Positions 2,149 through 22,506 of a stretch of 24,000 nt of DNA are shown piece after piece. The DNA is taken from assembly GCF_000633355.1 (NCBI RefSeq), contig NZ_AYMQ01000004.1, positions 12,630 to 36,629 on the forward strand. The letters run 5' to 3'. Origin of the DNA: Serratia sp. H1w (GTDB lineage Bacteria > Pseudomonadota > Gammaproteobacteria > Enterobacterales > Enterobacteriaceae). The translations under genes and the position numbers were made by a program. How positions within the stretch are numbered: position 1 is the first letter of the stretch; every line of letters begins with the position of its first letter. The notes beneath the pieces were generated by a model, which was not told where the DNA came from, did not search any database, and worked only from the letters and a program-made list of their open reading frames with translations.

Positions 2149-2174
2149 AATAAGGGCGCTTTGACGTCCTTATT
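2149..2174. terminator. Stem-loop between the convergent nanA and B3/B4 genes (AATAAGGGCG-ctttga-CGTCCTTATT); no clear U-tract on either strand
   Basis: Inverted repeat read directly from the sequence. It overlaps the stop codon of the minus-strand gene (2170-2172). Confidence 0.3.
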
Positions 2175-2841
2175 CTTGGCTGATAGGTGTTACCATACTT
2201 CCAGGCCAAATGTTTTTTATCTGTTGTGTCAGCACCTGACTTAAAGCAGCAATGTCCGCTGTTGCCGTATCATGCATCGCCTCCATCACAATCAGTGCTT
2301 GGGTGGTGTATTGACTCACCGCAGAGTAACCACTTTGCCGATGTGTCCAGCGCCTGGCATGAGCATAGCCGGCAGCATCGGCAAAGATCACTTCACCCAC
2401 CGAAGGTGACTCGGTGGTACCAGAGAACGTTTGGTAAATCTCATTCCCCTGCGCATAGCACACCTGGAGGTCACCGTTGATCTTCTGTCGATCGAATACG
2501 GCAATTGGAATGGCGAAGGCCAGTGAAAGCGCATTGCATAAATCGATCAGTGGAAAAATGGTTGGTAACAATCCCTCTTTTCGTAGGCGGCGCAATAGTG
2601 ATTCCGCCGCGCAGCGATACTGGGTTGGTTTTAGTCCCATTAGCACGAAGGCGTGTCGCCAGGCTTGGATCTCTGTAAGGCCGCTTTCGGTACCACCACT
2701 TAAGCGGGCCACTGCCTGGCGGCTGAAGTCGATGACCGGCAGGCTGACATCTGCTTGCTGGTCGATCCCTTCAACCAGCAGGCAGCAAGATGCTAGAGCT
2801 GGGAAGGAGGAGCGTAGAGAATTGGCATAGTTAAAGTTCAT
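2170..2841 (-). CDS. Stand-alone B3/B4 (PheT-like tRNA-binding/editing fold) domain protein; function unknown
   Basis: 223-aa ORF. The segment PLIDLCNALSLAFAIPIAVFD parallels the conserved VDxxNxxxLxxGxPxHxFD core of the PheRS beta-subunit B3/B4 domain. Length is typical of stand-alone COG3382-type proteins. Confidence 0.7.
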   Translation of the reverse strand: MNFNYANSLRSSFPALASCCLLVEGIDQQADVSLPVIDFSRQAVARLSGGTESGLTEIQAWRHAFVLMGLKPTQYRCAAESLLRRLRKEGLLPTIFPLIDLCNALSLAFAIPIAVFDRQKINGDLQVCYAQGNEIYQTFSGTTESPSVGEVIFADAAGYAHARRWTHRQSGYSAVSQYTTQALIVMEAMHDTATADIAALSQVLTQQIKNIWPGSMVTPISQE

Positions 2842-2922: not shown

Positions 2923-3723
2923 TCAGCATTGGCGTAGACGGCGGGCATAGAGGCCAGGAGAAATTCCCAGTGTGCGGGTAAACTGGCGTGTCATATGGCT
3001 TTGGTCGGCAAAACCTGCCGCTACGGCACTCTCTGCCAGTGAGGTGCCATTGGCAATCAACCGTCTGGCGAGCTGGATCCGGCGCTGGATCAGGTAAGCA
3101 TGTGGGGTGATGCCGATAGTTTGTTGAAAGCTGCGGATCAGTTGATAACAGCTGATGCCGCAGAGCTGGGACAGCTCGCCAAGGGAAACCGGGGTGGCGG
3201 GATCGTCGTCAAGACGCTGTTGGGCCAGACGTAGCGTTGGCATGGTTACCATCGGTTCACGATGGTGAAATAACCGAGCTAACAGCAGGAACAGGGACTG
3301 CTCTTGAGCCAGTGGACTGCCCGGTTGCGGTTGGGTGATACAGCTAAACAGGCTGTGAAAACAGCTGGCGACCCTGTTATCGCTCAGGACAGGTAATGAA
3401 AACTCACTACCTGATAATTTGCCTGTCCCCAGTTCGCTGGTGGCTTGCGCTATCAGCTCTGGCTCCAGATAGAGCATGCGCCATGAGCGAGGCCCTTCAC
3501 CCATGGGACGACCATCATGTACTTCACCGGGGTTGACCGTAATGATGTCACCCGATCCGGCTTCAACCAGCCCACGGCCACTGAGTGATTTTTGTGCCCC
3601 AGAGATGATCAGCCCGATGCCAAACTGGGTGTGAAAATGCTTTGGGTAACTGTGGCGAGTGGTGGCTATTACCGCTTCGATGCCCGGCACAGAAAAGGAT
3701 GGCATACTGAATTGGGATGGCAA
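2923..3723 (-). CDS. AraC-family transcriptional regulator with an N-terminal cupin-type sensor domain
   Basis: 266-aa ORF. The N-terminus is cupin-like (HSYPKHFH..GDIITVNPGEVHDG). The C-terminus has a dual HTH (SLGELSQLCGISCYQLIRSFQ ... AVAAGFADQSHMTRQFTRTLGISPGLY). It lies 81 bp upstream of, and on the same strand as, the B3/B4 gene. Confidence 0.85.
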   Translation of the reverse strand: MPSQFSMPSFSVPGIEAVIATTRHSYPKHFHTQFGIGLIISGAQKSLSGRGLVEAGSGDIITVNPGEVHDGRPMGEGPRSWRMLYLEPELIAQATSELGTGKLSGSEFSLPVLSDNRVASCFHSLFSCITQPQPGSPLAQEQSLFLLLARLFHHREPMVTMPTLRLAQQRLDDDPATPVSLGELSQLCGISCYQLIRSFQQTIGITPHAYLIQRRIQLARRLIANGTSLAESAVAAGFADQSHMTRQFTRTLGISPGLYARRLRQC

Positions 3724-3884: not shown

Positions 3885-4760
3885 ATGAAACATCCGCTGG
3901 TGGCCGTGTTGGCTCCGCTGCTCGATGATGGGCAGGGGATCCGGCAGGTTTATTTTGCCGGTAACCAACATCCGGCCCCGGAACTGGCCTATCAGGTAGG
4001 CTTTCCGCGCCTTGAGCTGGTGGTGGACGGGGAGCAGGAAATGGAGTGGGAAGGCAGCCAGGGGGCGCGGCATCGGCAGATATTGCTGCCGGGGGATGTG
4101 CTGTTTGTCCCAGCGCAAGGTTGGAACAGCCCGCGCTGGCAGCAACCCACTACCACGCTCAGCCTGTTGTTTGGCAAGCAGCAACTGGGATACAGCCTGC
4201 TGGGTTGGGACGGGGAAGGCACGCTGCTGCTGGGTAAAGACAATGTGGCGCGTCGCGGCCCGCGCGTAGGGTCGTTTATGTTGCAGGCGCTGAACGAACT
4301 CTCCTGGCATCAGAGCGATCAGCCCACCGCACGCTTTCTGGTGAAGGGTTTGTTGAGTCATGCGCTCGATCTGTTTGGCACCTCGGTGAGAACTGCCTCG
4401 CGTAGTCAGGCGCTGTTTGATGCGGTGCGCAGTCATCTGGAAGAGCATTATCGCGAGCCGTTAACCCGCGAGTCGGTGGCTCAGGCGTTCTATATCTCGC
4501 CCAATTACCTTTCTCACCTGTTCCAGAAGGCCGGTGGCATCGGTTTTAACGAATATCTTAATCACGTGCGGCTGGAGCAGGCCAAGCACCTGCTCAAACG
4601 CTATGACATGAAGGTGAAAGAGGTGGCGCACGCCTGCGGGTTTGTCGACAGTAACTATTTCTGCCGCCTGTTTCGCAAGAACACCGAGCGCTCCCCGTCG
4701 GAATACCGTGGCCAATACCACAGCGAGCTGGGCCCCTCTCCCACAGAGAAAGGGAATTAG
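3885..4760 (+). CDS. yijO: AraC-family transcriptional regulator, positional equivalent of E. coli YijO (convergent with frwD)
   Basis: The ORF track starts at 3804. The ATG at 3885 (MKHPLVAVLAP) is preceded by AAGGA and gives 291 aa. The C-terminal AraC HTH reads SVAQAFYISPNYLSHLFQK ... VAHACGFVDSNYFCRLFRKNTERSPSEYR. The symbol rests on synteny with the E. coli frw locus, not on a search. Confidence 0.7.
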   Translation: MKHPLVAVLAPLLDDGQGIRQVYFAGNQHPAPELAYQVGFPRLELVVDGEQEMEWEGSQGARHRQILLPGDVLFVPAQGWNSPRWQQPTTTLSLLFGKQQLGYSLLGWDGEGTLLLGKDNVARRGPRVGSFMLQALNELSWHQSDQPTARFLVKGLLSHALDLFGTSVRTASRSQALFDAVRSHLEEHYREPLTRESVAQAFYISPNYLSHLFQKAGGIGFNEYLNHVRLEQAKHLLKRYDMKVKEVAHACGFVDSNYFCRLFRKNTERSPSEYRGQYHSELGPSPTEKGN

Positions 4761-4792
4761 TCCAGCGTCGTTGGCGGGTAATGCGGCACTGC

Positions 4793-4817
4793 GTAGGGGC
4801 AGCTGCATGCTGCGCCC
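4793..4817 (+). repeat. REP-type palindromic element (GTAGGGGCAGCTGCATGCTGCGCCC)
   Basis: Member of a family with further copies at 14643, 15672, 15721 and 17338. It is an imperfect palindrome centred on GCATGC. Confidence 0.7.
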
Positions 4818-4860
4818 GTGTTAAAACCAGATGTGGGAGTAAAATTTTGGCACGGTCGGT

Positions 4861-4893
4861 CCCCTCTCCTTGGGGAGAGGGTTAGGGTGAGGG
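4861..4893 (-). repeat. Hairpin repeat, copy 1 (reverse complement CCCTCACCCTAACCCTCTCCCCAAGGAGAGGGG), ending 3 nt from the frwD stop codon
   Basis: Near-identical copies lie at 13527-13561 and 13653-13686. The internal stem is CCCTCTCC/GGAGAGGG. Spurious ORFs across it read ..PLTLTLSPRRGD../..GEGWGEG.. Confidence 0.8.
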
Positions 4894-4896
4894 AGA

Positions 4897-5241
4897 TTAC
4901 ACCACGCGGATATGTGTTTCCTGGGGGGAGGCTGCGGCCTTGCGTACCGCACTGAGCGCCTTCTCCGGCGTACGCAGAAAGGTGTTGATGCCGATCTGCA
5001 CGCAACGGTGATGCTCAAAACGCTCGCTTTCCGCCAGCAGGATGTCGCTGATCAACAGCACCACGTCGGCCTGGGCCAGATCGTCCGCCGTCAGCGAGTT
5101 TTCAATACCTAATGCCCCCTGCGTTTCTACTTTGACCGGCCATTTCTCCTGCGCACACAGTTTTTCCAGCCGTTCGGCAGCCATATAGGTATGGGCGACC
5201 CCGCTGATACAGGCCGTAACCGCTACGAGTTTTATCGTCAT
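4897..5241 (-). CDS. frwD: PTS fructose-like EIIB component (second EIIB of the locus)
   Basis: 114-aa ORF. The N-terminal VAVTACISGVAHTYMAAE carries the PTS_IIB(Fru) phospho-Cys motif. AAGAGG RBS. It is the last gene of the frwC-frwB-pflD-pflC-frwD order, as in E. coli. Confidence 0.85.
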   Translation of the reverse strand: MTIKLVAVTACISGVAHTYMAAERLEKLCAQEKWPVKVETQGALGIENSLTADDLAQADVVLLISDILLAESERFEHHRCVQIGINTFLRTPEKALSAVRKAAASPQETHIRVV

Positions 5242-5262
5242 ACCAGCCTCTTTATGTTCTGT

Positions 5263-6159
5263 TCAACCGCCAATGATGACCCGGTAACCCGCCTGCTGTG
5301 CCATCGCCTGCAAGGGGGCAACCTCTTGTTCTGTCGGGGCCGCGACCCCGCGCATGGCATATTCACGCCCTAAAAGAGTGTATTTTGCCTCGCCATACTG
5401 GTGAAAAGGCAACAGGTGGATCTCTTGTAGCCCAAAAGGTGCCAGGAACGCCAGCACCTGCGCCATATTCTCCGTGCTCAAAGTGTAGCCGGGTATTAAC
5501 GGCAGGCGAGGGATCAGATTAACTCCGTGCTGTACCAGCGCGGTAAAGTTTGCCAACACCCGTGGCAGATTGATGTTCAACTGACTTTTAGCGGCGTTGG
5601 CATCCATGATCTTCAGGTCAAACAGGATCTGATCGCAGTGTTCCGCCAAGGCCAATACGTGGGCTTGCGAGGCATCCCCGGCGGTTTCGACGGCGGTATT
5701 GATACCTAGTGCCTGTAAGCGCTGCAATAGCTGGGTAGCAAACTCGGCCTGCATCAGCACTTCACCGCCGGAGAGCGTCACCCCACCGCCGGAAGTGCGA
5801 TAAAACACCTCATCCTTGAGAATTTGCTGTAACAGCGCCTCCAGGGTAATGTTTTGGCCGATCAGCTCCATCGCTCCGCTTGGACACTCTTGCGCATCGT
5901 TCAGGCAGGGCTGGCAACGCAGGCACTTGGCCTTGCGCCGCACGCGGTGGATCTTGCCCGACATCGACTCTGGGTTAGCACACCATGGGCAGCTATGCGG
6001 GCAGCCTTTGAAAAACACCACGGTGCGGATGCCCTGCCCATCATTCAGCGAATAACGCTGAATATTGAAAATGCGGGCCTGCGGCTCGGTGTGAGTTGCC
6101 CGGGAAAACCCGGGCGTGATCAGGCTACAGTTGATGCGCTGTACGGCGGATGATGTCAT
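5263..6159 (-). CDS. pflC: Glycyl-radical enzyme activating enzyme (radical SAM), PflC type
   Basis: The ORF track starts at 6210. The ATG at 6159 (MTSSAVQRINCS) has a strong AAGGAG RBS (complement of 6167-6172) with 7 nt spacing, giving 298 aa. The radical-SAM motif CPHSCPWC (CX3CX2C) is encoded at 5980-6003. An extra Cys-rich segment KCLRCQPCLNDAQECP follows. The start overlaps the pflD 3' end by 35 nt. Confidence 0.9.
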   Translation of the reverse strand: MTSSAVQRINCSLITPGFSRATHTEPQARIFNIQRYSLNDGQGIRTVVFFKGCPHSCPWCANPESMSGKIHRVRRKAKCLRCQPCLNDAQECPSGAMELIGQNITLEALLQQILKDEVFYRTSGGGVTLSGGEVLMQAEFATQLLQRLQALGINTAVETAGDASQAHVLALAEHCDQILFDLKIMDANAAKSQLNINLPRVLANFTALVQHGVNLIPRLPLIPGYTLSTENMAQVLAFLAPFGLQEIHLLPFHQYGEAKYTLLGREYAMRGVAAPTEQEVAPLQAMAQQAGYRVIIGG

Positions 6160-8422
6160 CCTGGATCTCCTTCGACAGCTCCACGAAGAATGCGCTATAG
6201 CCGGCGACACGCACCACCAGCCCGGCGAAGTCCTGCGGCCTGGCCTGCGCTTCCTTCAGGGTTTCGGCATTCACGACGTTGAACTGCACATGCTGCAACT
6301 TGAGCTTGGTAAAGGCGCCGAGGAAATCCGCCAGTTTGTTCAGCCCCTGCTGGCCTTCCAGCGTGCTTGGGGTGAACTTCACGTTCAACAGCGTGCCGTT
6401 GGAAAGCAGGTAGTTATCCAGCTTGCTCACCGACTTCAGTACCGCCGTTGGCCCTTGGGCATCCTGGCCGAGCATCGGCGATAGCCCGCCGTCCGCCAAC
6501 TGTTCCCCGGCATAACGTCCATCCGGCGTGGCTCCCACCACCGCTCCCAATGGCACGTGGGCGGAAACGGTATAAGACCCAGGCGTAAACTGCCCCCCAC
6601 GCGGGTTGCGGTACTGCTCCACTTCTTTGCAGTAAAATCGCAGCAGATCGGCGCTGATCAGGTCGACTTCATCGATGTCGTTGCCGTATTTGTCGAAGCG
6701 ATTGATCAGCCGTGCGCGGATCTTTTCCCCTTCCGGCGTGGCGAAGTTGGCCTTCAGCGTGGCCAGCAGTTCGTCAAAACTCAGGCGCTGCTGATCGAAA
6801 ACCAGGCCTTTCAGGGCATACAGCGAGTCGCTCAGGTTGGCGATGCCGATGCCTTGTACGCCGGAGAAGTTATAGCGTGCGCCGCCTTCGGTGATGTCTT
6901 TACCGTTTTGCAGGCAGTCATCGATAAAGGAGGACAACAGCGGTACCGGAGCCCAGTCGCGGTGGCCGATATCGCAGATATTGCTGCCTTCGGCCATCAG
7001 CCGGACGTAATGACGGATTTTTTCGCGGATTTGATCCAGCAACTGCGGGTAGGTGAGGCTGGTATTGCCTTCGTTATCCAGCAACGTCAGTTCCATCACC
7101 TTCAGCAGGTTGAACATGGCAATGTCGTGCAGGCCGTAGGTACGCCCAGGGATCGACAGCTCAACGCAGCCCACCACCGCATAATCACGCGCATCTTCCA
7201 GCGAGACGCCACGGTTGAGGAACGCCGGAACCACCACTTCGTCGTTGAAGATTTGTGGAATGCCGGTGCCGAGGCGGATGGTTTCGGCGGTTTTCAGCAG
7301 GAATGGGCGATCGATAAATTCATTGACCCTTACGCCCAGGTTTGGCTGCGGCAGGCGGATATTCTGGTAGGCATCCAGGCACAGGAAGGACAGCACGTTG
7401 ACCGCGCTGCGGCCGGTTTCCGTCAGGCCGCCCAGCAAAATGGTGTAGCCGGTCGGAAAGCCAGCGAAATAACGCGCACTGGAGGTAGAGCGCAACAGCA
7501 CGATGTCGTTGCACTTCACCCACAGGCTTTCCAGCAGTTCCTTCAGGAAGGCCGGATCCTGTCCCTGATTGAGGGAGGCTTGATAGAACGGCAGCATGTA
7601 CTGATCGAAACGGCCGAGCGACAGTGAGCTGGCGTTGGATTCATACTGCAAAATGATGTTCATGTACCAGAACAGCTGGCAGGCCTGATAGAAGTCCTGC
7701 GGCTTATGGCGGGCGTTGTGGCTGGCGATCTCGGCGATCCGCAGCAGCTCGGCGCGGCGAGTTTCATCGTTGCACTGTTGCACCATCTGACGGGCCAGGC
7801 TGGCATAACGCAGGATGTGGCGCTGCGAGGCTTGCAACAGCAGCAGTGCGGCGGTGTAGAACGCATTATCTGGTTGTTGCTCAACGTGGCTTTGCAACTC
7901 GGCCAGCAGGCTATCCAGGCCGTTATTCAACAGGCGTGGGTAATCGATGATGATATGTCCCTGACCCTTGTCCGTCTGGTTGACGCTGAAAATCTGGGTC
8001 TGGGTAGCGGCTTTAACTTCTTCGGACATCTGGCCGTTGATGAAATCCTTCATCGAGCGCTGTTCCCAGTAAGGATAAAGCTGCTCGCGGTACACCTGCT
8101 TGTCGGCTTCGGAAATGGTGAAGCGATCCTGCGGGCGCGTTGGGAAAGCATCCAACTCTTTCAGCAGCCAGTAAGGGTCCATCTCTGGCGAGACGATCCC
8201 GGCACGCGGCTTCACCGTGCGGTTACCGGCGATCAGCTCGTCTTCCCGCAGGGTAATTGCTACGTGATCGAGGATATAGGCGGTGGCCTTGGCACGGCGG
8301 ATAATGGTGGGTTCTCCCTCGGTCTGCCGGTGGCTGGCGGTATAGAGCAGTGCGCGTTCGAGCGAAATTTCACGCGGGGCGGAGAACAGGGCGGCTTTGA
8401 GACGTTCGATCCGGGAGATCAT
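6125..8422 (-). CDS. pflD: Glycyl-radical enzyme, PflD type (annotated historically as formate acetyltransferase 2 but eliminase-like)
   Basis: The ORF track starts at 8467. The ATG at 8422 (MISRIERLKAALF) is preceded by AAGGAAA and gives 765 aa, the length I recall for E. coli PflD. The C-terminal glycyl-radical fingerprint is VVRVAGYSAFF (Gly codon 6200-6202). The thiyl-loop motif is VVGCVELSIPG (Cys codon 7166-7168, Glu 7160-7162). Confidence 0.92.
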   Translation of the reverse strand: MISRIERLKAALFSAPREISLERALLYTASHRQTEGEPTIIRRAKATAYILDHVAITLREDELIAGNRTVKPRAGIVSPEMDPYWLLKELDAFPTRPQDRFTISEADKQVYREQLYPYWEQRSMKDFINGQMSEEVKAATQTQIFSVNQTDKGQGHIIIDYPRLLNNGLDSLLAELQSHVEQQPDNAFYTAALLLLQASQRHILRYASLARQMVQQCNDETRRAELLRIAEIASHNARHKPQDFYQACQLFWYMNIILQYESNASSLSLGRFDQYMLPFYQASLNQGQDPAFLKELLESLWVKCNDIVLLRSTSSARYFAGFPTGYTILLGGLTETGRSAVNVLSFLCLDAYQNIRLPQPNLGVRVNEFIDRPFLLKTAETIRLGTGIPQIFNDEVVVPAFLNRGVSLEDARDYAVVGCVELSIPGRTYGLHDIAMFNLLKVMELTLLDNEGNTSLTYPQLLDQIREKIRHYVRLMAEGSNICDIGHRDWAPVPLLSSFIDDCLQNGKDITEGGARYNFSGVQGIGIANLSDSLYALKGLVFDQQRLSFDELLATLKANFATPEGEKIRARLINRFDKYGNDIDEVDLISADLLRFYCKEVEQYRNPRGGQFTPGSYTVSAHVPLGAVVGATPDGRYAGEQLADGGLSPMLGQDAQGPTAVLKSVSKLDNYLLSNGTLLNVKFTPSTLEGQQGLNKLADFLGAFTKLKLQHVQFNVVNAETLKEAQARPQDFAGLVVRVAGYSAFFVELSKEIQDDIIRRTAHQL

Positions 8423-8455
8423 CACATTTTCCTTTTGTGCGGTAATGGGGGCGGG

Positions 8456-8478
8456 AAAACCCGGCACGTGGTGCCGGG
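8456..8478 (-). terminator. Intra-operon terminator-like hairpin between frwB and pflD
   Basis: Perfect 8-bp GC-rich stem CCCGGCAC/GTGCCGGG (8460-8467 / 8471-8478) with a 3-nt loop. On the transcribed (minus) strand it is followed by TTTTCCC. Confidence 0.4.
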
Positions 8479-8490
8479 CTAGCCTTACGG

Positions 8491-8811
8491 TCAGGCCTTT
8501 TGCGCTAAATGAGCGGCAATTTTTTCCATGATGGCATCGGCACGTTTTACCGCGTCGCTGATGGCTACGCGCACCACGGTTTTCCCTTTAAAGCGTTCTT
8601 CAAACTTGATGCCGATATCCTTGGTCAGGATCACCACGTCGGCAGCGGCCACGTCTTCGGCCGTCAGTTCGTTTTCCAGGCCGATAGAGCCTTGGGTTTC
8701 CACCTTGCACTGCCAGCCTTGAGCTTTGGCGGAACGTTCAATGGCTTCGGCAGCCATGTAGGTATGGGCAACGCCAGATGGGCAAGCGGTAACAGCGATA
8801 ATCATAGTCAT
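8491..8811 (-). CDS. frwB: PTS fructose-like EIIB component
   Basis: 106-aa ORF, the same length as E. coli FrwB. The N-terminal IAVTACPSGVAHTYMAAE carries the phospho-Cys motif. GAGGAA RBS. Confidence 0.88.
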   Translation of the reverse strand: MTMIIAVTACPSGVAHTYMAAEAIERSAKAQGWQCKVETQGSIGLENELTAEDVAAADVVILTKDIGIKFEERFKGKTVVRVAISDAVKRADAIMEKIAAHLAQKA

Positions 8812-8838
8812 GGCAAATTCCTCAAAAGTATTCGTTGT

Positions 8839-8860
8839 CTCTCAGGCCGTAGCCTGAGGG
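8839..8860 (-). other. Intercistronic stem-loop between frwC and frwB
   Basis: Inverted repeat CTCTCAGGC-cgta-GCCTGAGGG read from the sequence, with no adjacent U-tract. It could act as an mRNA stabiliser or processing site. Confidence 0.3.
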
Positions 8861-8869
8861 CGTATTGAT

Positions 8870-9946
8870 TCAGTTAATTTCGAAATCCAGATCCAGATCG
8901 TCCTGGGCGGCTTTGGTGGCCTGTTTCTTGGCGGCAAAACTTTTCAGCAGGTTAACCAGCAGGGCGGTGACTACCATGCCGACCAGCAGCGCAGCAACGT
9001 AGCCGAGCTTGCCTTCAACCACTGGCAGCACAATCAACCCACCCCAACCGGCGTAGCACTGGGCACCGACCAATGCGGCGGTCACGGCGGCACAGGCGGA
9101 ACCAATCATGATGGAAGGGATAACGCGCAGCGGATCGGCGGCGGCGAACGGGATGGCCCCTTCGGTAACGCCGACGCAGCCCATCAGCAGCGCGGCTTTA
9201 CCCGCTTCGCGCTCTTCCGGGGTGTAGTATTTACGGCCAATCAGCGTGGCGAAGCCCAGACCGAGCGGTGGGGTGGCGATGGCAACGGCCGCGATGGCAA
9301 CCACGGAGTAGACGCCCTGAGCGACGCAGATCAGCATAAAGGCGTAGGCCACCTTGTTGACCGGGCCACCCATGTCAAACGCCAGCATCAGGCCCATGAT
9401 GATCGCCAGCACCACGATGCTGCCTTGCTGCATACCTTGCAGCCAGTGGGTCAGACCATTGGTCAGTGCGCCAACCGGTTCGCCCAGCCCCCACATCATG
9501 ATGCCCGCGGTGAGCAGGGTACCAATGATGGGGATCACGAAGATCGGCATCACCGAACGCAGGATCTTCGGCACCGGGATCTTCTTGAGATAGAACACAA
9601 TAATGCCGCCCAGCAGGCCAGCTATGATCGCCCCGAAGAAGCCAGCCCCGAAGGATGCGCCCACCCAGGCACCAATTGCCGAAGGAGCCAGCGCGGAGCG
9701 ATCTGAAATGGAGTAACCAATATAGGCCGCGAGGAAAGGCACCATCAGCGTTAACCCGGCCACGCCGATATCGAACAGTTTTTTCAGGTTAGGGTCGGTT
9801 GCGGCATCGGGTACTGCCCCTTTACCGTACAACATCACGGAGATAGCCAGCAAAATGCCACCGGCGACCACAAACGGGATCATATGGGAGACGCCGGTCA
9901 TTAAATGCTGGCGTGTGTTTCTTAGAATATTGAGTAGGTCTTTCAT
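8870..9946 (-). CDS. frwC: PTS fructose-like EIIC permease component
   Basis: 358-aa highly hydrophobic ORF. PTS_EIIC(Fru) family features include GGILLA, IAGLLGG and the GVTEGAIPFAAADP loop. It is the first gene of the minus-strand operon. GGGAG RBS. Confidence 0.9.
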   Translation of the reverse strand: MKDLLNILRNTRQHLMTGVSHMIPFVVAGGILLAISVMLYGKGAVPDAATDPNLKKLFDIGVAGLTLMVPFLAAYIGYSISDRSALAPSAIGAWVGASFGAGFFGAIIAGLLGGIIVFYLKKIPVPKILRSVMPIFVIPIIGTLLTAGIMMWGLGEPVGALTNGLTHWLQGMQQGSIVVLAIIMGLMLAFDMGGPVNKVAYAFMLICVAQGVYSVVAIAAVAIATPPLGLGFATLIGRKYYTPEEREAGKAALLMGCVGVTEGAIPFAAADPLRVIPSIMIGSACAAVTAALVGAQCYAGWGGLIVLPVVEGKLGYVAALLVGMVVTALLVNLLKSFAAKKQATKAAQDDLDLDFEIN

Positions 9947-10163
9947 CGTTCACTCCCTGGCCGCGACCAGCGTGCTTCTGAGATAAAACCACCAGGGAAT
10001 GACCCTTGATGGATAAAGGTTGTTGGCTATCACAATAGGCATCCGTCGCCACTATCAACAGTGGATAAAATTGCCATTTACTGGATTTTTGTATTGTCAG
10101 GAGAAAAGTGCGATCTAACTCAAAGTGTGCGACAGAAGAAACCGGGCTTGAGGGCGCAGGCTT

Positions 10164-10179
10164 TGTGAGCGACATCGCA
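10164..10179. promoter_or_regulatory. Candidate CRP-binding core (TGTGA-gcgaca-TCGCA) in the frwC/ptsA divergent control region
   Basis: 9 of 10 core positions match TGTGA-N6-TCACA. The position relative to any transcription start is unknown. Confidence 0.3.
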
Positions 10180-10306
10180 TTTATGCCGTCAGGATACATT
10201 TGTCCAGTGTTTGACATTTTTATCCGATAGCCCTGGGCCGCGCTGCGCTTCTATCCTTGTGACAAACCGGTGTTGTTCACCGCTGCTTTGGTATGAGGAA
10301 AGAGTG

Positions 10307-12808
10307 ATGGCGAAAATTGTGACGTTTACCTGCGTGCTGCCCAACGGGGTGCATGCCCGCCCAGCCAGCCATATCGAAACCCTGTGCAACGGTTTCCGTT
10401 CCCGCTTTGAATGGCACAACGCGCGCAGTGGCCGTTGCGGTGATGGCAAAAGCGTGTTGTCGCTGATCGGGACCGATACTTTGCTGGGCGACGAGTGCCG
10501 GATCACCATCGAAGGGGAAGATGAGCAGGCCGCATTTGAGCGCCTGACCCAGTTTATCGAACATGAATTCCCGCACTGTGACGAAGCGCTGCCGCAGGTG
10601 AACGACCAGGCCGAGCAGGAACCTATCCCGCAGTCTTTAGCTAATCTGAACCCAACGTTGGTACGGGCCCGTTCCGTCAACCAGGGCACTGCCAATGGCA
10701 AATTGGTGCATCTGGCGCGGGTCGATTTAAACGCTCTGTCTTTGCCGCCCGCTCACTCTATTGAACAGGAGCAGCAGCAACTGGCCGAAGGGCTAACGCG
10801 CTTTGGCAAGGCGTTGGATTTGCAACTGATGGGCGGTAACGGTACTACCACGGCGGTGCTGGAAGCGCACCGTTCATTACTGCGTGACGGCGGATTCCGT
10901 CAACACCTGCTCGACGGTGTGCTGTCAGGGGAAAGTTGCGCCGCCGCGATTGTGGCCACCGCAGCCCACTTCAGCCAACAGTTGGCGCAGTCTGCCAGTG
11001 CCTATCTGCGGGAGCGCGAACTGGATATTCGTGATGTCAGCTTCCAGCTGTTACAGCAAATTTATGGCGAGCAGCGCTTCCCGGCACAACAGGCGCTGAG
11101 TGTCGACAGCATCTGTATCACCGATGAGCTGACGCCCAGCCAATTCCTGGAACTGGATAAACGCTACTTGAAAGGCCTGTTGTTGGGCAGCGGTGGCAGC
11201 ACCTCGCATACGGTGATCCTGGCGCGCTCGTTCAACATTCCTACCCTGGTTGGCGTTGATGCCGCAGCCATGCTGCCATATCTGCATCAATCGGTGCAGA
11301 TCGACGGCGATCTTGGGCTGGTGGCCTGCGATCTCAGCGAACCGGTACGTCGTTACTATCAGCAGGAGCAGTGGCTGAGTGAGCAGATCCGCAGCCAGCA
11401 AAGCGCCTATCTGGATCAGCCGGGGCGCACTGCCGACGGCGTAAGAATGGAAGTGGCCGCCAATATCGCCCATGCGGTAGAAGCAGAAGCCGCCTTCAGC
11501 AACGGTGCCGAGGCGGTGGGCCTGTTCCGTACCGAAATGCTGTATATGGATCGCCTGACCGCGCCTTCCGAAGATGAGCTGTACAACATTTATTGCCAGG
11601 CGGTGGAAGCGGCCGCAGGCAAGACGATTATCGTGCGTACCATGGACATCGGCGGCGACAAGCCGGTGGATTACCTGAACATCCCGGCCGAAAATAACCC
11701 GTTCCTCGGCTACCGGGCGGTACGTATCTATCAGGAATTCCTGCCGCTATTCCGTACTCAGTTGCGCTCGATCCTGCGTGCTTCGGCACATGGTCCGCTG
11801 AAGATCATGATCCCGATGATCTCCTCGATGGAAGAGATCCTGTGGGTGAAGGATCAACTGGCCGAAGTGAAGCAATCGTTGCGTGCCGGGCAGATCCCGT
11901 TCGACGAAAAAATTCCGCTCGGCATCATGCTGGAAGTGCCTTCGGTGCTGTTTATCATTGACCAGTGCTGTGAGGAGATCGACTTCTTCAGCATCGGTAG
12001 CAACGACCTGACGCAGTACCTGCTGGCGGTGGATCGCGACAACGCCAAGGTCATCAAACATTACAACAGCCTGAACCCGGCGTTCCTGCGTGGGTTGGAT
12101 CATGCGGTGCGTGAAGTCCACCGCCACGGCAAATGGATCGGCCTGTGTGGCGAACTGGGGGCCAAAGGCTCGGTGCTGCCGCTGCTGGTGGGTATGGGGC
12201 TGGATGAGATCAGTATGAGCGCCCCTGCTATTGCCGCCACCAAAACCCGTCTGGCCAAGCTGGACAGCCGCGAATGCCGTTTGTTGCTCAACCGGGCCAT
12301 GGCCTGCCGGACGTCGCTGGAAGTGGAACACCTGCTGGCTCAGTTCCGCATGGAGCAAAGCGATGCTCCGCTGATCACGCCGGAATGTATCGCCCTGGGG
12401 GCCGATTGGCGCAGCAAGGAAGAGGTTATCAAAGGCATGGCGGATAACCTGCTGCTGGCTGGGCGCTGCCGCTACCCACGTAACCTTGCCGCCGACCTGT
12501 GGGCGCGTGAGGCGGTATTTTCCACCGGGCTGGGTTTTGGCTTTGCCATCCCACATACCAAATCTGAGCATATCGAACAGTCCACCATCAGCGTAGCCAA
12601 GCTGGCGCAGCCGGTCGTCTGGGGCGATGAAGAGGCCCAGTTCGTCATCATGCTGACCCTCAATAAACATGCCGCCGGGGACCAGCATATGCGCATTTTC
12701 TCCAAGCTGGCGCGGCGCATCATGCATGAAGGTTTCCGAGACGCCCTGGTGAACGCGGCATCGGCCCAACAGGTAGAGGCGTTGCTGAAACAAGAGCTTG
12801 AACTGTAA
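10307..12808 (+). CDS. ptsA: Multiphosphoryl transfer protein: fused HPr-like, Enzyme I and EIIA(Fru/Ntr-type) domains
   Basis: The ORF track starts at 10211. The ATG at 10307 (MAKIVTFTCVLPNGVHARPAS) follows GGAAAGAG and gives 833 aa, the length I recall for E. coli PtsA. Three phospho-site contexts are visible: HPr His in GVHARPAS (codon 10352-10354), EI His in GGSTSHTVILARSFNIPTLVG, and EIIA His in GFGFAIPHTKS. The EI C-terminal IGLCGELG is also present. Confidence 0.9.
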   Translation: MAKIVTFTCVLPNGVHARPASHIETLCNGFRSRFEWHNARSGRCGDGKSVLSLIGTDTLLGDECRITIEGEDEQAAFERLTQFIEHEFPHCDEALPQVNDQAEQEPIPQSLANLNPTLVRARSVNQGTANGKLVHLARVDLNALSLPPAHSIEQEQQQLAEGLTRFGKALDLQLMGGNGTTTAVLEAHRSLLRDGGFRQHLLDGVLSGESCAAAIVATAAHFSQQLAQSASAYLRERELDIRDVSFQLLQQIYGEQRFPAQQALSVDSICITDELTPSQFLELDKRYLKGLLLGSGGSTSHTVILARSFNIPTLVGVDAAAMLPYLHQSVQIDGDLGLVACDLSEPVRRYYQQEQWLSEQIRSQQSAYLDQPGRTADGVRMEVAANIAHAVEAEAAFSNGAEAVGLFRTEMLYMDRLTAPSEDELYNIYCQAVEAAAGKTIIVRTMDIGGDKPVDYLNIPAENNPFLGYRAVRIYQEFLPLFRTQLRSILRASAHGPLKIMIPMISSMEEILWVKDQLAEVKQSLRAGQIPFDEKIPLGIMLEVPSVLFIIDQCCEEIDFFSIGSNDLTQYLLAVDRDNAKVIKHYNSLNPAFLRGLDHAVREVHRHGKWIGLCGELGAKGSVLPLLVGMGLDEISMSAPAIAATKTRLAKLDSRECRLLLNRAMACRTSLEVEHLLAQFRMEQSDAPLITPECIALGADWRSKEEVIKGMADNLLLAGRCRYPRNLAADLWAREAVFSTGLGFGFAIPHTKSEHIEQSTISVAKLAQPVVWGDEEAQFVIMLTLNKHAAGDQHMRIFSKLARRIMHEGFRDALVNAASAQQVEALLKQELEL

Positions 12809-12817
12809 TTCATTCTT

Positions 12818-12833
12818 GGGCGCTGCGGCGCCC
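12818..12833 (+). terminator. Short GC hairpin (GGGCGC-tgcg-GCGCCC) followed by TTCATATTT, between ptsA and fsaB
   Basis: Read directly from the sequence. It lies 10 nt after the ptsA stop and 26 nt before the fsaB ATG. It may be a partial terminator or a processing/stabilising element. Confidence 0.35.
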
Positions 12834-12859
12834 TTCATATTTAGTCTTGAGGAGCAATT

Positions 12860-13525
12860 ATGGAACTCTATCTGGATACTGCTGATATCAATGCGGTGAA
12901 ACGTCTCGCACGGGTATTGCCATTGCAAGGGGTGACGACCAACCCAAGCATTGTGGCCGCATCACGCACGTCACTATGGGAAGTGCTGCCTGCGTTGCGC
13001 GATATCATCGGTGGGGAAGGGAAGCTGTTTGCCCAGGTGATGGCCGCCAAGGCCGATCAGATGGTAGAAGAAGCGGTATTGCTCAACCGACGCGTTCCTG
13101 GCCTGGTGGTGAAAGTGCCGGTAACCGGTGAAGGACTGGCCGCTATCAAAACCCTGCGTGGCATGGGCATTCCAACGTTAGGTACGGCGGTTTATGGGGC
13201 GGCACAGGGGCTGCTTTCTGCTCTGGCGGGGGCGGAGTATGTGGCACCTTACGTCAACCGGGTAGATGCTCAGGGCGGCAATGGCATTGCTACCGTGCAA
13301 GAATTGCAGCATTTGCTGGAACTGCATGCTCCGCAGGCCAAAGTGCTGGCAGCCAGCTTCAAAACCCCACGGCAGGCGCTGGAGTGTCTGCTGGCAGGTT
13401 GTGAAGCTATTACCTTACCGGTCGATGTTGCCGAGCAGTTTATCAGTGCTCCGGCGGTGCAGGCGGCGGTAGAAAAGTTTGAGCACGATTGGCACGGCGC
13501 GTTTGGTACCTTGGCGCTGAGCTAA
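12860..13525 (+). CDS. fsaB: Fructose-6-phosphate aldolase 2 type (transaldolase-fold class I aldolase, TalC/FsaB)
   Basis: 221-aa [20 protein letters not shown], the Schiff-base Lys context [44 protein letters not shown] and [22 protein letters not shown] are near-identical to E. coli FsaB. GAGGAG RBS. Confidence 0.92.
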
Positions 13526-13526
13526 G

Positions 13527-13686
13527 CCCCTCACCCTAACCCTCTCCCACAGGGAGAGGGGACAGAATGAGCCACATCTTGGCTACGAAACTCTACATAT
13601 ATATCAAGGTAATACAGGCAGACTCTAAACTTGAATTCAGCACGGTACGGCTCCCTCTCCCTGTGGGAGAGGGTTGGGGTGAGGGG
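13527..13686. repeat. MITE-like composite: two ~34-bp hairpin repeats in inverted orientation (13527-13561 and 13653-13686, 1 mismatch) flanking a 91-bp AT-rich spacer
   Basis: Left arm: CCCCTCACCCTAACCCTCTCCCACAGGGAGAGGGG. Reverse complement of right arm: CCCCTCACCCCAACCCTCTCCCACAGGGAGAGGG. The composite fills essentially the whole fsaB-ysgA intergenic region. A third copy lies at 4861-4893. Confidence 0.85.
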
Positions 13687-13692
13687 AGATTG

Positions 13693-14529
13693 TTACTTCA
13701 CACCCGGCACACCATGCTGGCTGAACCACGCCAACATACGCTGCCAACCGTCGGCGGAAGCCTCTGCGTTATAGCTTGGCCGGTAATCGGCGTGGAAAGC
13801 GTGGCCCGCTTCGGGATACACCACGATTTCCGCATCGGCATTGGCCGCACGGATTGCCTGGCGCATGGTTTCCACCGTTTCTTGTGGAATGCTGCCGTCC
13901 TGACCCCCGTATAAACCGAGTACCGGCGCCGAAAGACCGATGGCGATATCAACCGGATGCTTGGGCGAATTCAGGGTTTTCTCCCCCACCAGCTTGCCAT
14001 ACCAGGCCACCGCCGCCTTCAGTTGCGGGTTATGCGCGGCATACAGCCAGGTGATACGTCCACCCCAACAAAAGCCGGTGATCGCCAACTTGCTGGCGTC
14101 GCCGCTGTGGCGCGTTGCCCAATGCGCAGCGTGGTCCAGATCGGCCAGAACCTGGCTGTCTGGCACTTTGCTGACCAGGTTTTTTACCAACTCACTGACT
14201 TCGCTGTACTCTCTGGCATCTCCCTGGCGGAAATAGAGTTCTGGAGCGATGGCCAGATAACCCTGTTTCGCCAGGCGACGGCACAAATCCTGAATGTGTT
14301 CATGCACGCCAAAGATTTCCTGCACCACCAACACGATCGGGAATGGCCCCTGATGGTGGGCCGGTTTGGCGATATAGGCTGGCAGATCGTCCCCTTGCGA
14401 TGGGATGGTGGTTTCCCCTACGTGAATATCCTGTTCATCGGTCAGGATAGTCGAGGTAGCCAACGGTGCGACGGCCGGGGTGAATCCCCCTTTGGCCTGT
14501 TTTAATGTCATTTGTTGTTCTGTTTTCAT
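13693..14529 (-). CDS. ysgA: Dienelactone hydrolase family protein (carboxymethylenebutenolidase-like)
   Basis: The ORF track starts at 14601. The ATG at 14529 (MKTEQQMTLKQ) is favoured, giving 278 aa, but the start is uncertain. The DLH nucleophile motif is ITGFCWGG and the His context is EAGHAFHADY. It sits divergently upstream of udp, as E. coli ysgA does. Confidence 0.8.
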   Translation of the reverse strand: MKTEQQMTLKQAKGGFTPAVAPLATSTILTDEQDIHVGETTIPSQGDDLPAYIAKPAHHQGPFPIVLVVQEIFGVHEHIQDLCRRLAKQGYLAIAPELYFRQGDAREYSEVSELVKNLVSKVPDSQVLADLDHAAHWATRHSGDASKLAITGFCWGGRITWLYAAHNPQLKAAVAWYGKLVGEKTLNSPKHPVDIAIGLSAPVLGLYGGQDGSIPQETVETMRQAIRAANADAEIVVYPEAGHAFHADYRPSYNAEASADGWQRMLAWFSQHGVPGVK

Positions 14530-14642
14530 TGATTGCAGGCTCCATGCGTTAGAGAAAAAAGCGCGGCAGTTAACTATAGGCAGATTACCGCTTATTGGCA
14601 CGGCATGGCGAATTTTTGCTCAGGGCGGAAGCATGCCAGCAT

Positions 14643-14853: not shown

Positions 14854-15615
14854 ATGTCTCAGTCTGACGTTTTCCACCTCGGTCTCACTAAAAACGATCT
14901 GCAAGGCGCCACTTTGGCCATCGTCCCTGGCGATCCGCAGCGTGTAGAGAAAATCGCCAAGCTGATGGAAAACCCGGTACACCTGGCTTCCCACCGCGAA
15001 TTTACCTCTTGGCGTGCCGAACTGGATGGCAAAGCGGTGGTCGTGTGTTCAACCGGTATCGGTGGCCCGTCTACCTCTATTGCCGTTGAAGAGTTGGCAC
15101 AGCTGGGTATCCGTACCTTCCTGCGCATCGGTACGACCGGCGCCATTCAGTCCAATATCAACGTGGGCGACGTGCTGGTCACTACCGCTGCCGTCCGTCT
15201 TGATGGTGCCAGCCTGCACTTTGCCCCGATGGAATTCCCGGCAGTGGCGGACTTTGCCTGTACTACGGCGCTGGTTGAAGCCGCCAAGGCCAGTGGCGCG
15301 ACCACGCATATCGGCGTCACCGCCTCTTCCGATACCTTCTACCCAGGCCAGGAACGTTACGACACCTATTCCGGCCGTGTAGTGAACCGCTTTAAAGGTT
15401 CCATGGAAGAGTGGCAGTCGATGGGTGTGATGAACTATGAAATGGAATCCGCCACCTTGCTGACCATGTGTGCCAGCCAGGGCCTGCGTGCGGGGATGGT
15501 TGCCGGTGTGATCGTTAACCGCACCCAGCAAGAGATCCCAAATGCAGAAACCATGAAGAAGACCGAAAGCCAGGCGGTGCAAATCGTCGTTGAGGCGGCT
15601 CGCCGTCTGCTGTAA
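14854..15615 (+). CDS. udp: Uridine phosphorylase
   Basis: 253-aa ORF, near-identical along its whole length to E. coli Udp ([33 protein letters not shown]..., [75 protein letters not shown]). GAGGAG RBS. Confidence 0.97.
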
Positions 15616-15922: not shown

Positions 15923-16705
15923 ATGACCACTCAGATTTCACTCCATCCCTCACTTGCGCCGCTAGACGGTGGTATCAATTTCCGTGATTTAGGCGGTAAC
16001 ACCGTGGCCGATGGTCGCCGTATCAAACGCGGGCTGCTGTTTCGTTCCGGCGCTCTGGATCGGTTGAGCGAAAACGACTGTAGCTACCTGGCCAAGATGC
16101 CGATGCGCTCGGTGCTGGATTACCGTGATATTGACGAAGTGCAGGCCAAACCGGACGTGTTATGGGCGGGAGCCGATTATTATCACGTGCCAGCCAACCC
16201 GCTGAGCAGTGAAGTCAACGCCAACCTGGATAAACTCACTGACGAGACGCTGGCCAAGTTTGATGCCCGGGCCTTTATGCTGGAGCTGTATCGCCGCTTG
16301 CCATTCAATAACGCTGCCTATCGCCAACTGGCGCAGCTGTTGGCCCAGCCTGAAGGTGGTGCGATTGTGCAGCACTGCGCAGTAGGCAAAGACCGCACCG
16401 GCGTCGGTTCTGCGATGGTACTGCTGGCTCTGGGGGCGGATGAGGCCACGGTGATGGAAGACTATCTGCTAACGCAAATCACGCTGGCGAGCTTCCGTGA
16501 TCATATGTTGGAACAGCTCTCTAGCCGGTTGAACGACGCCTCGGTAGCGCAGTTTGCCTATGTACTCGGTGCTCGTGAAGAGTTTCTGGTCACCGCGCTG
16601 GGCTGCATTCGTCAGCAATATGGCTCTGCCGATCGCTGGTTGGAGGCCGAATATGGGCTGGGGCAAAGCCAGCGCGAGGCAATCCAGGCGTTCTATCTCG
16701 AATAA
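15923..16705 (+). CDS. Cys-based protein-tyrosine/dual-specificity phosphatase-like protein (Y_phosphatase3-like), cytoplasmic
   Basis: 260-aa ORF with no signal peptide. The CX5R P-loop is HCAVGKDRTG. The N-terminal GGINFRDLGG is typical of this family. AAGGA RBS. Confidence 0.78.
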   Translation: MTTQISLHPSLAPLDGGINFRDLGGNTVADGRRIKRGLLFRSGALDRLSENDCSYLAKMPMRSVLDYRDIDEVQAKPDVLWAGADYYHVPANPLSSEVNANLDKLTDETLAKFDARAFMLELYRRLPFNNAAYRQLAQLLAQPEGGAIVQHCAVGKDRTGVGSAMVLLALGADEATVMEDYLLTQITLASFRDHMLEQLSSRLNDASVAQFAYVLGAREEFLVTALGCIRQQYGSADRWLEAEYGLGQSQREAIQAFYLE

Positions 16706-16792
16706 TGGCAGCATGTTTAGCTCAGGTTTAACCCGCGCAGCAGGGCATTGCGTATCCTTGGATCAGGATCCATTCCCTAGGGGAGAAAATCA

Positions 16793-17323
16793 TTGAGCCT
16801 CAATGACATCATTGACTGGGTTGGGGAAGTGGTGCGCCAGCATCAAGCCTGGGCGATACCGATCGTCTTCTTCCTGGCCTTTGGCGAGTCGTTGGCATTT
16901 CTTTCTTTGCTGTTGCCTGCAACGGTTATTCTGCTGGGGCTGGGGGCACTGATTGGCGAGAGCGGCATTGCTTTCTGGCCGATTTGGGCGGCCGCCGCTG
17001 CGGGTGCCTTCTTTGGTGACTGGCTCTCCTATTGGGTTGGTTATCACTATCAGCAGCGTGTAGCCCATATGTGGCCGCTGTCACGTAATCCACAGTTGCT
17101 GGTACGTGGCCATGCGTTTTTTGAGCGCTGGGGCGTGCTGGGCATCTTCTTTGGCCGCTTCTTCGGGCCGTTGCGTGCCGTGGTGCCGCTGGTGGGTGGC
17201 ATTTGTGCCATGCCGCAAGCCTCGTTCCAGATTGCCAACGTGGCCTCGGCGATGGTCTGGGCCTTCGGCATCCTGGCTCCAGGAGCCTTTGGCATCAAAT
17301 GGCTTACCCAGTGGATAGGTTGA
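16793..17323 (+). CDS. DedA/SNARE-associated family inner-membrane protein (TTG start)
   Basis: 176 codons starting at TTG, with GGGGAG 7 nt upstream and an in-frame stop at 16778-16780. DedA motifs are FGESLAFLSLLLPATV..LGLGAL and GRFFGPLRAVVPLVGG. It is multi-pass hydrophobic. Confidence 0.78.
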   Translation: MSLNDIIDWVGEVVRQHQAWAIPIVFFLAFGESLAFLSLLLPATVILLGLGALIGESGIAFWPIWAAAAAGAFFGDWLSYWVGYHYQQRVAHMWPLSRNPQLLVRGHAFFERWGVLGIFFGRFFGPLRAVVPLVGGICAMPQASFQIANVASAMVWAFGILAPGAFGIKWLTQWIG

Positions 17324-17337
17324 ACCCATTCTCAATA

Positions 17338-17361
17338 GTAGGGGCGCTGCATGCTGCGCCC
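17338..17361 (+). repeat. REP copy (GTAGGGGCGCTGCATGCTGCGCCC) 15 nt after the dedA-family stop
   Basis: Same family as the other REP copies. It is followed by TTCTTTAT, so it may double as a weak terminator. Confidence 0.7.
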
Positions 17362-17516
17362 TTCTTTATCTGGCCACAACCGGATGCTTTTTAAATTATT
17401 TGGGATAGAGTGAGAAATTGATCACGAATTTATCCTTATCTGGCGATTTTTAATTCCCTTATTTTTTCAGCAGTGTTACTTTCCTAACAAGTGGATTGTT
17501 ACTGTGAATAAACAGG

Positions 17517-17566
17517 CAAAACCCAAACCCGTCGACAAACTAATGTCATGGGTTTGGGTTTTTTTT
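17517..17566 (+). terminator. Strong Rho-independent terminator with no obvious cognate gene
   Basis: 11-bp stem AACCCAAACCC (17519-17529) / GGGTTTGGGTT (17549-17559), followed by a run of 9 T (17558-17566). It lies about 195 nt downstream of the nearest upstream stop codon and 79 nt upstream of the next ATG. Confidence 0.7.
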
Positions 17567-17644
17567 TGCCTCTAATTTACCGGGCGATCGACAAATGATT
17601 AAAAAATAGTCCTGTAGGCATCATTTTTCACTAAGGAATAGTCA

Positions 17645-18433
17645 ATGAAAATTAAAACCTGGTTGCTGGCCTCTGTCCTTGCCGTTTCCTCTGCTGCGGC
17701 CTTCAGCGTATCTGCGGCGGAAAGCGACAGCGTGGATATTTATTTTGCCCGCCACGGTAAAACACTGCTCAATACCTACGATCGGGTGCAGGGCTGGGCT
17801 GACTCACCGCTGACACCGGTCGGGATCGAAACCGCGCGCTATCTGGGTGCCGGGCTGAAGGGGATCCCTTTCGACAGTTTCTACACCAGTGATGCCGGCC
17901 GCCAGCGTGAAACCATGCAGGTGATCCTCAAGGAAATGGGCAAGTCGGATGCCAAGGTCACGGAACTGACCGATCTGCGCGAAATGTTCTTCGGCGGTTT
18001 TGAAGGGCGTGCTAACGCCGAAATGGCCGGCGCGGCTGCCAAGAAAATGGGCCTGGCCTCTGGCGCCGAAATGTTCAAGCAGATGGGCGAAGGCAAGATC
18101 AGCCTGATCCCGATGGTGGATGCCATCACGCAAAGCGATGACAAAAAAGAGGCGGAAAGCGCGCTACAGGTGAAAACCCGTATGCAGCGTGCACTGAATA
18201 CCATGGTGCAGAATGCCTTGAAGAACGGTGATAAAAACATCCTGGCGGTCTCTTCTGGGCTATCGATGCAGATGATGATTTCCGATATGACCGATAACCC
18301 GAACAAAAATAAGCCACTGACTAACGCGGCGGTGGTCAAGATGACTTATAAAGATGGAAAATATACCGTAACCGATATTGGCGATATGACTTATGTCGAA
18401 AAAGGGAAAACGTTATTAAATAAAGCACCTTGA
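17645..18433 (+). CDS. Secreted (Sec signal peptide) histidine-phosphatase-superfamily protein, phosphoglycerate-mutase-like branch
   Basis: 262-aa ORF. The signal peptide is MKIKTWLLASVLAVSSAAAFSVSA|AE. The catalytic RHG is in YFARHGKT (His codon 17753-17755). TSDAGRQRET and LREMFFGGFEG match family motifs. The usual second-His motif position reads VSSG. AAGGAA RBS. Confidence 0.78.
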   Translation: MKIKTWLLASVLAVSSAAAFSVSAAESDSVDIYFARHGKTLLNTYDRVQGWADSPLTPVGIETARYLGAGLKGIPFDSFYTSDAGRQRETMQVILKEMGKSDAKVTELTDLREMFFGGFEGRANAEMAGAAAKKMGLASGAEMFKQMGEGKISLIPMVDAITQSDDKKEAESALQVKTRMQRALNTMVQNALKNGDKNILAVSSGLSMQMMISDMTDNPNKNKPLTNAAVVKMTYKDGKYTVTDIGDMTYVEKGKTLLNKAP

Positions 18434-18479
18434 TTATTACCCAATAAAAAATAACTAACCCCTCTGCTGGGGGATATTA

Positions 18480-18506
18480 GCCGAGGCAATAATAAATTGC
18501 CTCGGC
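18480..18506 (+). terminator. 10-bp stem-loop (GCCGAGGCAA-taataaa-TTGCCTCGGC) downstream of the phosphatase gene; no U-tract
   Basis: Perfect inverted repeat read from the sequence. Confidence 0.4.
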
Positions 18507-22505: not shown

Positions 22506-22506
22506 T

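Follow-up and report, generated by a model that had tools for sequence, protein, structure and literature searches.

A glycyl radical enzyme of the PflD type in Serratia

The window analysed here (24,000 nucleotides of Serratia sp. H1w, contig NZ_AYMQ01000004.1) encodes on its minus strand a 765-residue glycyl radical enzyme (GRE). This protein is very probably the Serratia orthologue of PflD, an enzyme that opens the ring of 1,5-anhydromannitol-6-phosphate (AM6P) by radical chemistry and so converts it to the isomer 1-deoxyfructose-6-phosphate (DF6P). This analysis established the motifs, the way they align to structurally defined catalytic residues, the orthology and the conserved synteny of the locus. 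The gene and the sites of its product that bear on function, among them two positions that bind pyruvate in pyruvate formate-lyase (PFL), are as follows:

6125..8422, minus strand: pflD, 765-residue GRE, orthologue of Escherichia coli PflD, with Pfam, NCBIfam and PDB matches
7955..7957, minus strand: His156, at the position of the pyruvate-binding Arg176 of PFL (MAFFT alignment and BLASTP)
7145..7177, minus strand: Cys loop VVGCVELSIPG, with the thiyl-radical Cys419 and the general base Glu421 assigned by alignment
7115..7117, minus strand: Met436, at the position of the pyruvate-binding Arg435 of PFL (MAFFT alignment and BLASTP)
6143..6211, minus strand: glycyl radical fingerprint RVAGYSAFFVELSKEIQDDIIRR, residues 738-760, with Gly741 as the radical site

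The gene begins with ATG 8420-8422, preceded by AAGGA 9 nt upstream, and ends with TAG 6125-6127. Its product matches the Pfam families PFL-like (PF02901; 691 bits, residues 3-626) and Gly_radical (residues 645-747, E = 6e-29). The published form of the GRE fingerprint, RVxG[FWY]x6-8[FL]x4Qx2[IV]x2R, was tested as a regular expression and is completely matched at residues 738-760. Gly741 (codon GGC 6200-6202) lies within RVAGYSAFF and aligns to Gly734 of E. coli PflB. The codons of Cys419 and Glu421 are TGC 7166-7168 and GAG 7160-7162, respectively. An earlier sequence-only reading of the window had reported this open reading frame (ORF), both motifs and a single Cys with Glu two residues on; all of its ORF, Gly, Cys and Glu coordinates proved exact, and a search for adjacent Cys-Cys across the whole protein found none among its eight cysteines. 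The fingerprint, the PFL-like barrel with its Cys loop and a cognate radical S-adenosylmethionine (SAM) activase encoded next to it place the protein in the GRE superfamily.

Within this superfamily the protein scores 1599 bits against the NCBIfam PflD equivalog NF007437 (cut-off 1109) and 1211 bits against TIGR01774, the PFL2/glycerol dehydratase family (cut-off 678). Its best PDB match is E. coli 8YJO, already titled 'Probable dehydratase PflD' (1490 bits, residues 1-765 without a gap), followed by 8ID0 (1063 bits), the glycerol dehydratase structure 1R8W (656 bits) and 5I2A, a propanediol dehydratase (586 bits), and more weakly by YbiW 8ID7 (484 bits) and PFL (110 bits). The protein is 84% identical to PflD of E. 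coli K-12 (645/765, gap-free), with the Cys-loop and Gly-loop segments essentially the same, and identity to E. coli YbiW is 39%, below the level of orthologues. At the nucleotide level the window is about 76% identical to E. coli, which shows that it is not E. coli DNA. The gap-free 84% identity and the NF007437 score above cut-off both point to PflD at the orthologue level, and at none of the tested sites does the Serratia sequence depart from characterised PflD. The exact protein is RefSeq WP_025121834.1, filed under 'unclassified Serratia'. When one genome was scanned for each species, PflD proteins 98-99% identical to it turned up in S. fonticola and in a Serratia metagenome-assembled genome, and the window is assigned to the S. 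fonticola group.

Assignment of the Cys loop

In a MAFFT alignment with E. coli K-12 PflD, YbiW and PflB, Gly418-Cys419 of the window protein falls opposite Cys418-Cys419 of PflB (mature numbering), and a separate BLASTP comparison with PflB gave the same pairing. The lone cysteine therefore corresponds to the second cysteine of PflB, and the first, acyl-carrying one is a glycine here. The Cys419 column is invariant across PflD, YbiW and PflB, and Cys419/Glu421 share their alignment columns with Cys441/Glu443 of YbiW. When a 66-residue region around the loop was searched against PDB with phmmer, Cys419/Glu421 aligned to Cys433/Glu435 of glycerol dehydratase 1R8W, the position of the Cys-x-Glu (CXE) pair in CXE-type GREs. 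Also, in a full-length alignment to 8ID0, the AM6P-bound crystal structure of a PflD homologue, residues 412-513 fall without a gap on residues 424-525 of the chain, so that Cys419 corresponds to Cys431 and Glu421 to Glu433. Section 5.7 of PMC13450708 names Cys431 as the hydrogen-abstracting cysteine and Glu433 as the substrate-bound glutamate of PflD, and the same review likewise names Cys441 and Glu443 of YbiW.

The sequence-only reading had proposed an alignment as its own check, which could have put GCVE outside the Cys loop and a Cys-Cys pair in the active site. By the alignments above, the GCVE segment is the Cys loop and not a chance C-x-E. The reading had further taken a lone Cys with a nearby Glu as characteristic of C-O/C-N cleaving GREs, in agreement with PMC13450708 (sections 5.6.1 and 5.6.2), where the CXE motif marks such enzymes, namely glycerol dehydratase, propanediol dehydratase, HypD, CutC and others; the window protein carries the motif at the aligned position.

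Conservation was evaluated in 81 PflD orthologues, consisting of those from 80 species loci and that of E. coli K-12. Both VVGCVELSIPG and RVAGYSAFFV are invariant (81/81).

Cys-Cys pairs were observed in two of these orthologues, at residues 239-240 (locus L027) and 179-180 (locus L063), the Cys loop of both being still VVGCVE. Because these pairs sit far from the Cys loop, a plain text test for the presence of 'CC' would mislead. An AlphaFold2 model computed from the single sequence was unusable (mean predicted local distance difference test 34.8, predicted template modelling score 0.23).

Published chemistry and proposed mechanism

According to section 5.7 of PMC13450708 and section 5.1 of PMC12441222, which report the work of Ma et al. 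(JACS 2024, 146:26187; doi 10.1021/jacs.4c07718), DF6P is formed when PflD breaks the C-O bond in the ring of AM6P. The same sections describe how a sugar phosphotransferase system (PTS) phosphorylates 1,5-anhydromannitol to AM6P, how the PflD thiyl radical takes a hydrogen from C2 while the Glu residue in the CXE motif deprotonates the C2 hydroxyl and the C-O bond breaks heterolytically, and how the resulting alpha-keto radical regains a hydrogen from the cysteine to give DF6P. The product is then split by an aldolase of the fructose-6-phosphate aldolase (FSA) type to glyceraldehyde-3-phosphate and hydroxyacetone (PMC13450708, section 5.7). An equivalent ring-opening of 1,5-anhydroglucitol-6-phosphate is ascribed to YbiW in PMC13450708. 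Because the product still contains the leaving oxygen, PflD is now classed as a GRE isomerase and not as a net eliminase. The sequence-only reading had argued for elimination or ring-opening on a hydroxylated substrate; ring-opening matches the AM6P activity, with the qualification that the enzyme is an isomerase.

By analogy, the Frw PTS (FrwC, FrwB and FrwD together with PtsA) would import and phosphorylate the anhydro-sugar. The activating enzyme PflC would install a radical on Gly741, from where it would pass to Cys419, and the Cys419 thiyl radical would abstract the C2 hydrogen of the substrate. Glu421 would deprotonate the C2 hydroxyl, driving the ring C-O bond to break heterolytically and giving an alpha-keto radical, which would take the hydrogen back from Cys419 to leave open-chain DF6P. 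FsaB would then cleave DF6P to glyceraldehyde-3-phosphate and hydroxyacetone.

Organization of the pflD locus

The genes for these steps surround pflD in the window:

3885..4760, plus strand: yijO-like regulator of the AraC family, convergent with frwD; Pfam HTH_18 and HTH_AraC, 63% identical to E. coli YijO
4897..5241, minus strand: frwD, PTS fructose-like IIB subunit; NF007747 181 bits (cut-off 153) and Pfam PTS_IIB
5263..6159, minus strand: pflC, radical-SAM activating enzyme for PflD; NF007483 482 bits (cut-off 326)
8491..8811, minus strand: frwB, PTS fructose-like IIB subunit; NF007783 197 bits (cut-off 135)
8870..9946, minus strand: frwC, PTS IIC permease; NF007787 680 bits (cut-off 426)
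10307..12808, plus strand: ptsA, divergent, multiphosphoryl transfer protein (HPr-EI-EIIA); Pfam HPr, PEP-utilizers and EIIA_2, 71% identical to E. coli PtsA
12860..13525, plus strand: fsaB, fructose-6-phosphate aldolase; NF009296 385 bits (cut-off 306), 71% identical to E. coli FsaB

The minus-strand genes follow each other in the order frwC, frwB, pflD, pflC, frwD, and the arrangement is that of E. coli K-12, including a pflC/pflD overlap of 35 nt. As judged from these assignments, the whole context of the PflD pathway, that is a PTS, an activase, the lyase and an FSA-type aldolase, is encoded in the window.

The listed ORFs of pflC, ptsA and the yijO-like gene begin too far upstream, as indicated by profile and orthologue alignments and by Shine-Dalgarno sequences. 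For pflC the start is probably ATG 6159 and not GTG 6210, with AAGGAG upstream and the NF007483 profile beginning at ORF residue 18. The start of ptsA is probably ATG 10307 and not TTG 10211, giving 833 residues as in E. coli, and comparison of the N-termini makes ATG 3885 the probable start of the yijO-like gene, and not TTG 3804. PflC has its radical-SAM CX3CX2C motif at Cys53/57/60 and only four extra cysteines, Cys79/82/85/92, located in an insert, a number that would suffice for a single auxiliary Fe-S cluster.

In the 68-nt spacer between frwB and pflD, a GC-rich hairpin (CCCGGCAC-CAC-GTGCCGGG) followed by TTTT was observed on the minus strand at about 8445-8470. In form it is similar to a weak intrinsic terminator, or to an attenuator, within the operon; because its T-run consists of four T only, it was missed by the consensus scan. 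The spacer between frwC and frwB holds a second hairpin, at 8839-8860.

Other scans of the region were negative. FNR boxes, as expected for anaerobic control, matched 9 times at up to 2 mismatches vs 8.06 expected by chance, which is no signal, and the sigma-70 consensus had no match when 4700-13800 was scanned for it. No RNA family was detected in the window by Rfam at gathering thresholds. The composition profile revealed no GC anomaly around the locus, and therefore no sign of recent transfer.

Conservation and variation of the locus

The proteins of the window were compared by tblastn with the 80 species loci in order to survey synteny. FrwC, FrwB and FrwD are kept in 66-67 of the loci, PtsA in 64, FsaB in 59 and the yijO-like regulator in 72 (73 by another count). 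Tallied for the arrangement frwCB-pflDC-frwD, ptsA-fsaB and yijO, retention is 61-68 of the 80 loci, with E. coli K-12 in addition. The gene gldA comes after fsaB in 38 loci (Enterobacteriaceae, including that of E. coli K-12); linkage of gldA to fsaB was not found in the Serratia, Rahnella and Ewingella loci (L004-L021 and L040, vs L022 onward).

About a dozen loci carry pflD-pflC without the frw PTS, ptsA or fsaB within 10 kb. These orphan loci (L025, L029-L033, L037, L041, L042, L047, L060 and L061) belong to Kluyvera, Pseudocitrobacter and other Enterobacteriaceae, and their PflD proteins share about 84% identity with that of the window and have the same Cys loop. In one of them (L029), pflDC is accompanied by hypD/hypE-like genes and by genes for a sigma-54 GAF activator, an AraC regulator, a TOBE protein and an esterase.

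Three points weigh against the assignment of AM6P isomerisation to the window protein, or set its limit: the protein departs from E. coli PflD at 120 of its 765 positions; E. coli GldA has no tblastn match in the window, while gldA stands after fsaB in E. coli and 37 more species loci; and identity of substrate with the E. coli enzyme is inferred by orthology. Because gldA is unlinked and orphan pflDC loci lack a nearby PTS or aldolase, a small chance is left that the pflDC module is not tied to a single substrate or pathway, and that some orthologues, possibly that of Serratia, use another anhydro-sugar phosphate or supply another downstream route than the 'anhydroglycolysis' of E. coli.

A frameshifted gldA pseudogene after fsaB, suggested by short plus-strand ORFs at 13567-14505, was considered and rejected: there is no GldA tblastn match and a YghX-like gene occupies that place.

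Alternative functions

The enzyme could open the ring of another anhydro-alditol phosphate, for instance 1,5-anhydroglucitol-6-phosphate as YbiW does, or of another epimer. The 16% divergence from E. coli PflD and the different downstream locus, which lacks gldA, would be compatible with such a change, and the genera in which pflDC stands without a PTS or aldolase close by hint that the context can vary. However, the window protein matches PflD at the orthologue level and YbiW at only 39% identity, and the synteny of PTS, aldolase and regulator is the same as in E. coli. Also, the 66-residue Cys-loop stretch compared by phmmer has one difference from E. coli PflD before residue 445 (Ala415 for Ser), its other differences being at 445-449; Leu384 for Phe is also listed in the comparison with E. 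coli PflD. The near identity of this region bears only indirectly on the residues that would contact the phosphate and the C2-C4 hydroxyls of AM6P. A different sugar phosphate as substrate is accordingly given only a slim chance.

A second possibility is a 1,2-eliminase resembling glycerol or diol dehydratase, in which water would be lost from a free polyol, instead of a sugar-phosphate isomerase. Glycerol dehydratase 1R8W and propanediol dehydratase 5I2A are indeed the best PDB matches outside PflD, the CXE loop is the same, and a His-Asp pair follows the loop in both groups (GLHD vs GWHD). Yet the PflD structures score far higher (1490 and 1063 bits vs 656 and 586), the locus encodes a PTS and a sugar-phosphate aldolase and not a diol-utilisation or microcompartment system, and AM6P is the substrate assigned in section 5.7 of PMC13450708, all of which makes this function very improbable.

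The name 'formate acetyltransferase 2' would imply a true pyruvate formate-lyase (formate C-acetyltransferase), converting pyruvate to formate and acetyl-CoA. In PFL, pyruvate is bound by Arg176 and Arg435 (PMC13450708, section 5.3); in the window protein their places are taken by His156 and Met436, and both E. coli PflD and YbiW likewise have His in the Arg176 column. The window protein is 24% identical to PflB, and the PFL equivalog TIGR01255 gives 122 bits vs a cut-off of 994.2. No focA lies near pflD in the window, unlike in the pflB locus, nor does E. coli PflD bind FocA (PMC5600444). The absence of Cys-Cys, of Arg176/Arg435 equivalents and of an adequate TIGR01255 score means that every defining PFL feature tested failed. 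The objection to the name raised in the sequence-only reading holds on the same grounds, that is the Gly-Cys loop, His156, Met436 and the TIGR01255 score below cut-off. With the annotated names (NF007437, RefSeq WP_025121834.1 and E. coli pflD) and a common PFL-like fold family in its favour, and with glycine at the PflB Cys418 position, the arginine replacements, the FocA results and the AM6P ring-opening described in PMC13450708 against it, a PFL function retains practically no likelihood.

Implications for annotation

The conclusion that PflD is no pyruvate formate-lyase is right and already known: experiments published in 2024 decided it, providing the substrate and product, crystal structures and a mechanism that uses this Cys-x-Glu motif. 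Nevertheless, 'formate C-acetyltransferase' is still used for NF007437 (NCBIfam release 20.0, June 2026), for RefSeq WP_025121834.1 and, across thousands of genomes, for the pflD of E. coli. The misnomer has outlasted publication of the AM6P lyase by two years, and the annotation should be corrected. As a consequence of these names, metabolic reconstructions will wrongly credit these genomes with a second PFL and miss the anaerobic use of 1,5-anhydromannitol. The scientific gain of the present assignment is small, and its practical value lies in annotation.

Other genes in the window

Other genes noted in the window are:

462-1178: putative N-acetylmannosamine-6-phosphate 2-epimerase
1220-2128: DapA/NanA-family lyase, below the nanA cut-offs
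2170-2841, minus strand: B3_4-domain protein
2923-3723, minus strand: second AraC-family regulator
13693-14601, minus strand: dienelactone-hydrolase/YghX-like gene, next after fsaB
14854-15615: udp, beyond the YghX-like gene
15923-16705: Y_phosphatase3 protein
16793-17323: DedA-family protein
17645-18433: secreted histidine-phosphatase-like protein
18659-19981: OprD-family porin
20109-21671: rmuC
21735-22505: ubiE
22477-23127: SCP2/ubiJ-like gene

The second AraC-family regulator is present in only one of the 80 loci (L007). The part of the window from 15923 to 23127 looks like ordinary chromosomal backbone. Plus-strand ORFs antisense to pflD (6557-7627, 7706-8482 and 6116-6484; 356, 258 and 122 residues, respectively) gave no match in a Pfam search; most likely they do not code for protein and are a by-product of the GC-rich coding strand.

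Comparison with known systems

The closest known system is E. coli PflD (b3951, 8YJO), which is also 765 residues long and 84% identical, with identical Cys loop (VVGCVELSIPGRTYGLHD) and Gly loop. The 35-nt overlap with the activase gene and the frwCB-pflDC-frwD / ptsA-fsaB / yijO locus are common to both. They differ in the host, here a member of Serratia (Yersiniaceae), in 120 substitutions and in the gldA gene, which is unlinked to fsaB in the present locus.

YbiW (PflF; 8ID7/8YJN) resembles the window protein in its GC[VI]E Cys loop with Cys441/Glu443, in the His at the PFL Arg176 position, in an adjoining activase (ybiY) and in an FSA aldolase (fsaA); the type of ring-opening and the product are the same (PMC13450708). 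In contrast, it is 810 residues long, with insertions, is 39% identical, acts on the C2 epimer, and is encoded elsewhere, without the frw PTS.

PflB and TdcE belong to the same ten-stranded barrel family as the window protein and have in common with it the glycyl radical fingerprint, as well as the second cysteine of the loop (Cys419 in PflB). PflB is distinguished by its Cys-Cys, Arg176, Arg435 and its FocA partner, whereas the protein described here has Gly-Cys, His156 and Met436.

B12-independent glycerol dehydratase (1R8W/1R9D) belongs to the same fold family (TIGR01774), its CXE motif aligns residue by residue, and its Asp447 corresponds to Asp433. However, glycerol dehydratase, propanediol dehydratase, HypD and CutC act on small, unphosphorylated substrates and expel the leaving group (water or trimethylamine) in a net elimination, whereas the product of PflD is an isomer of its substrate.

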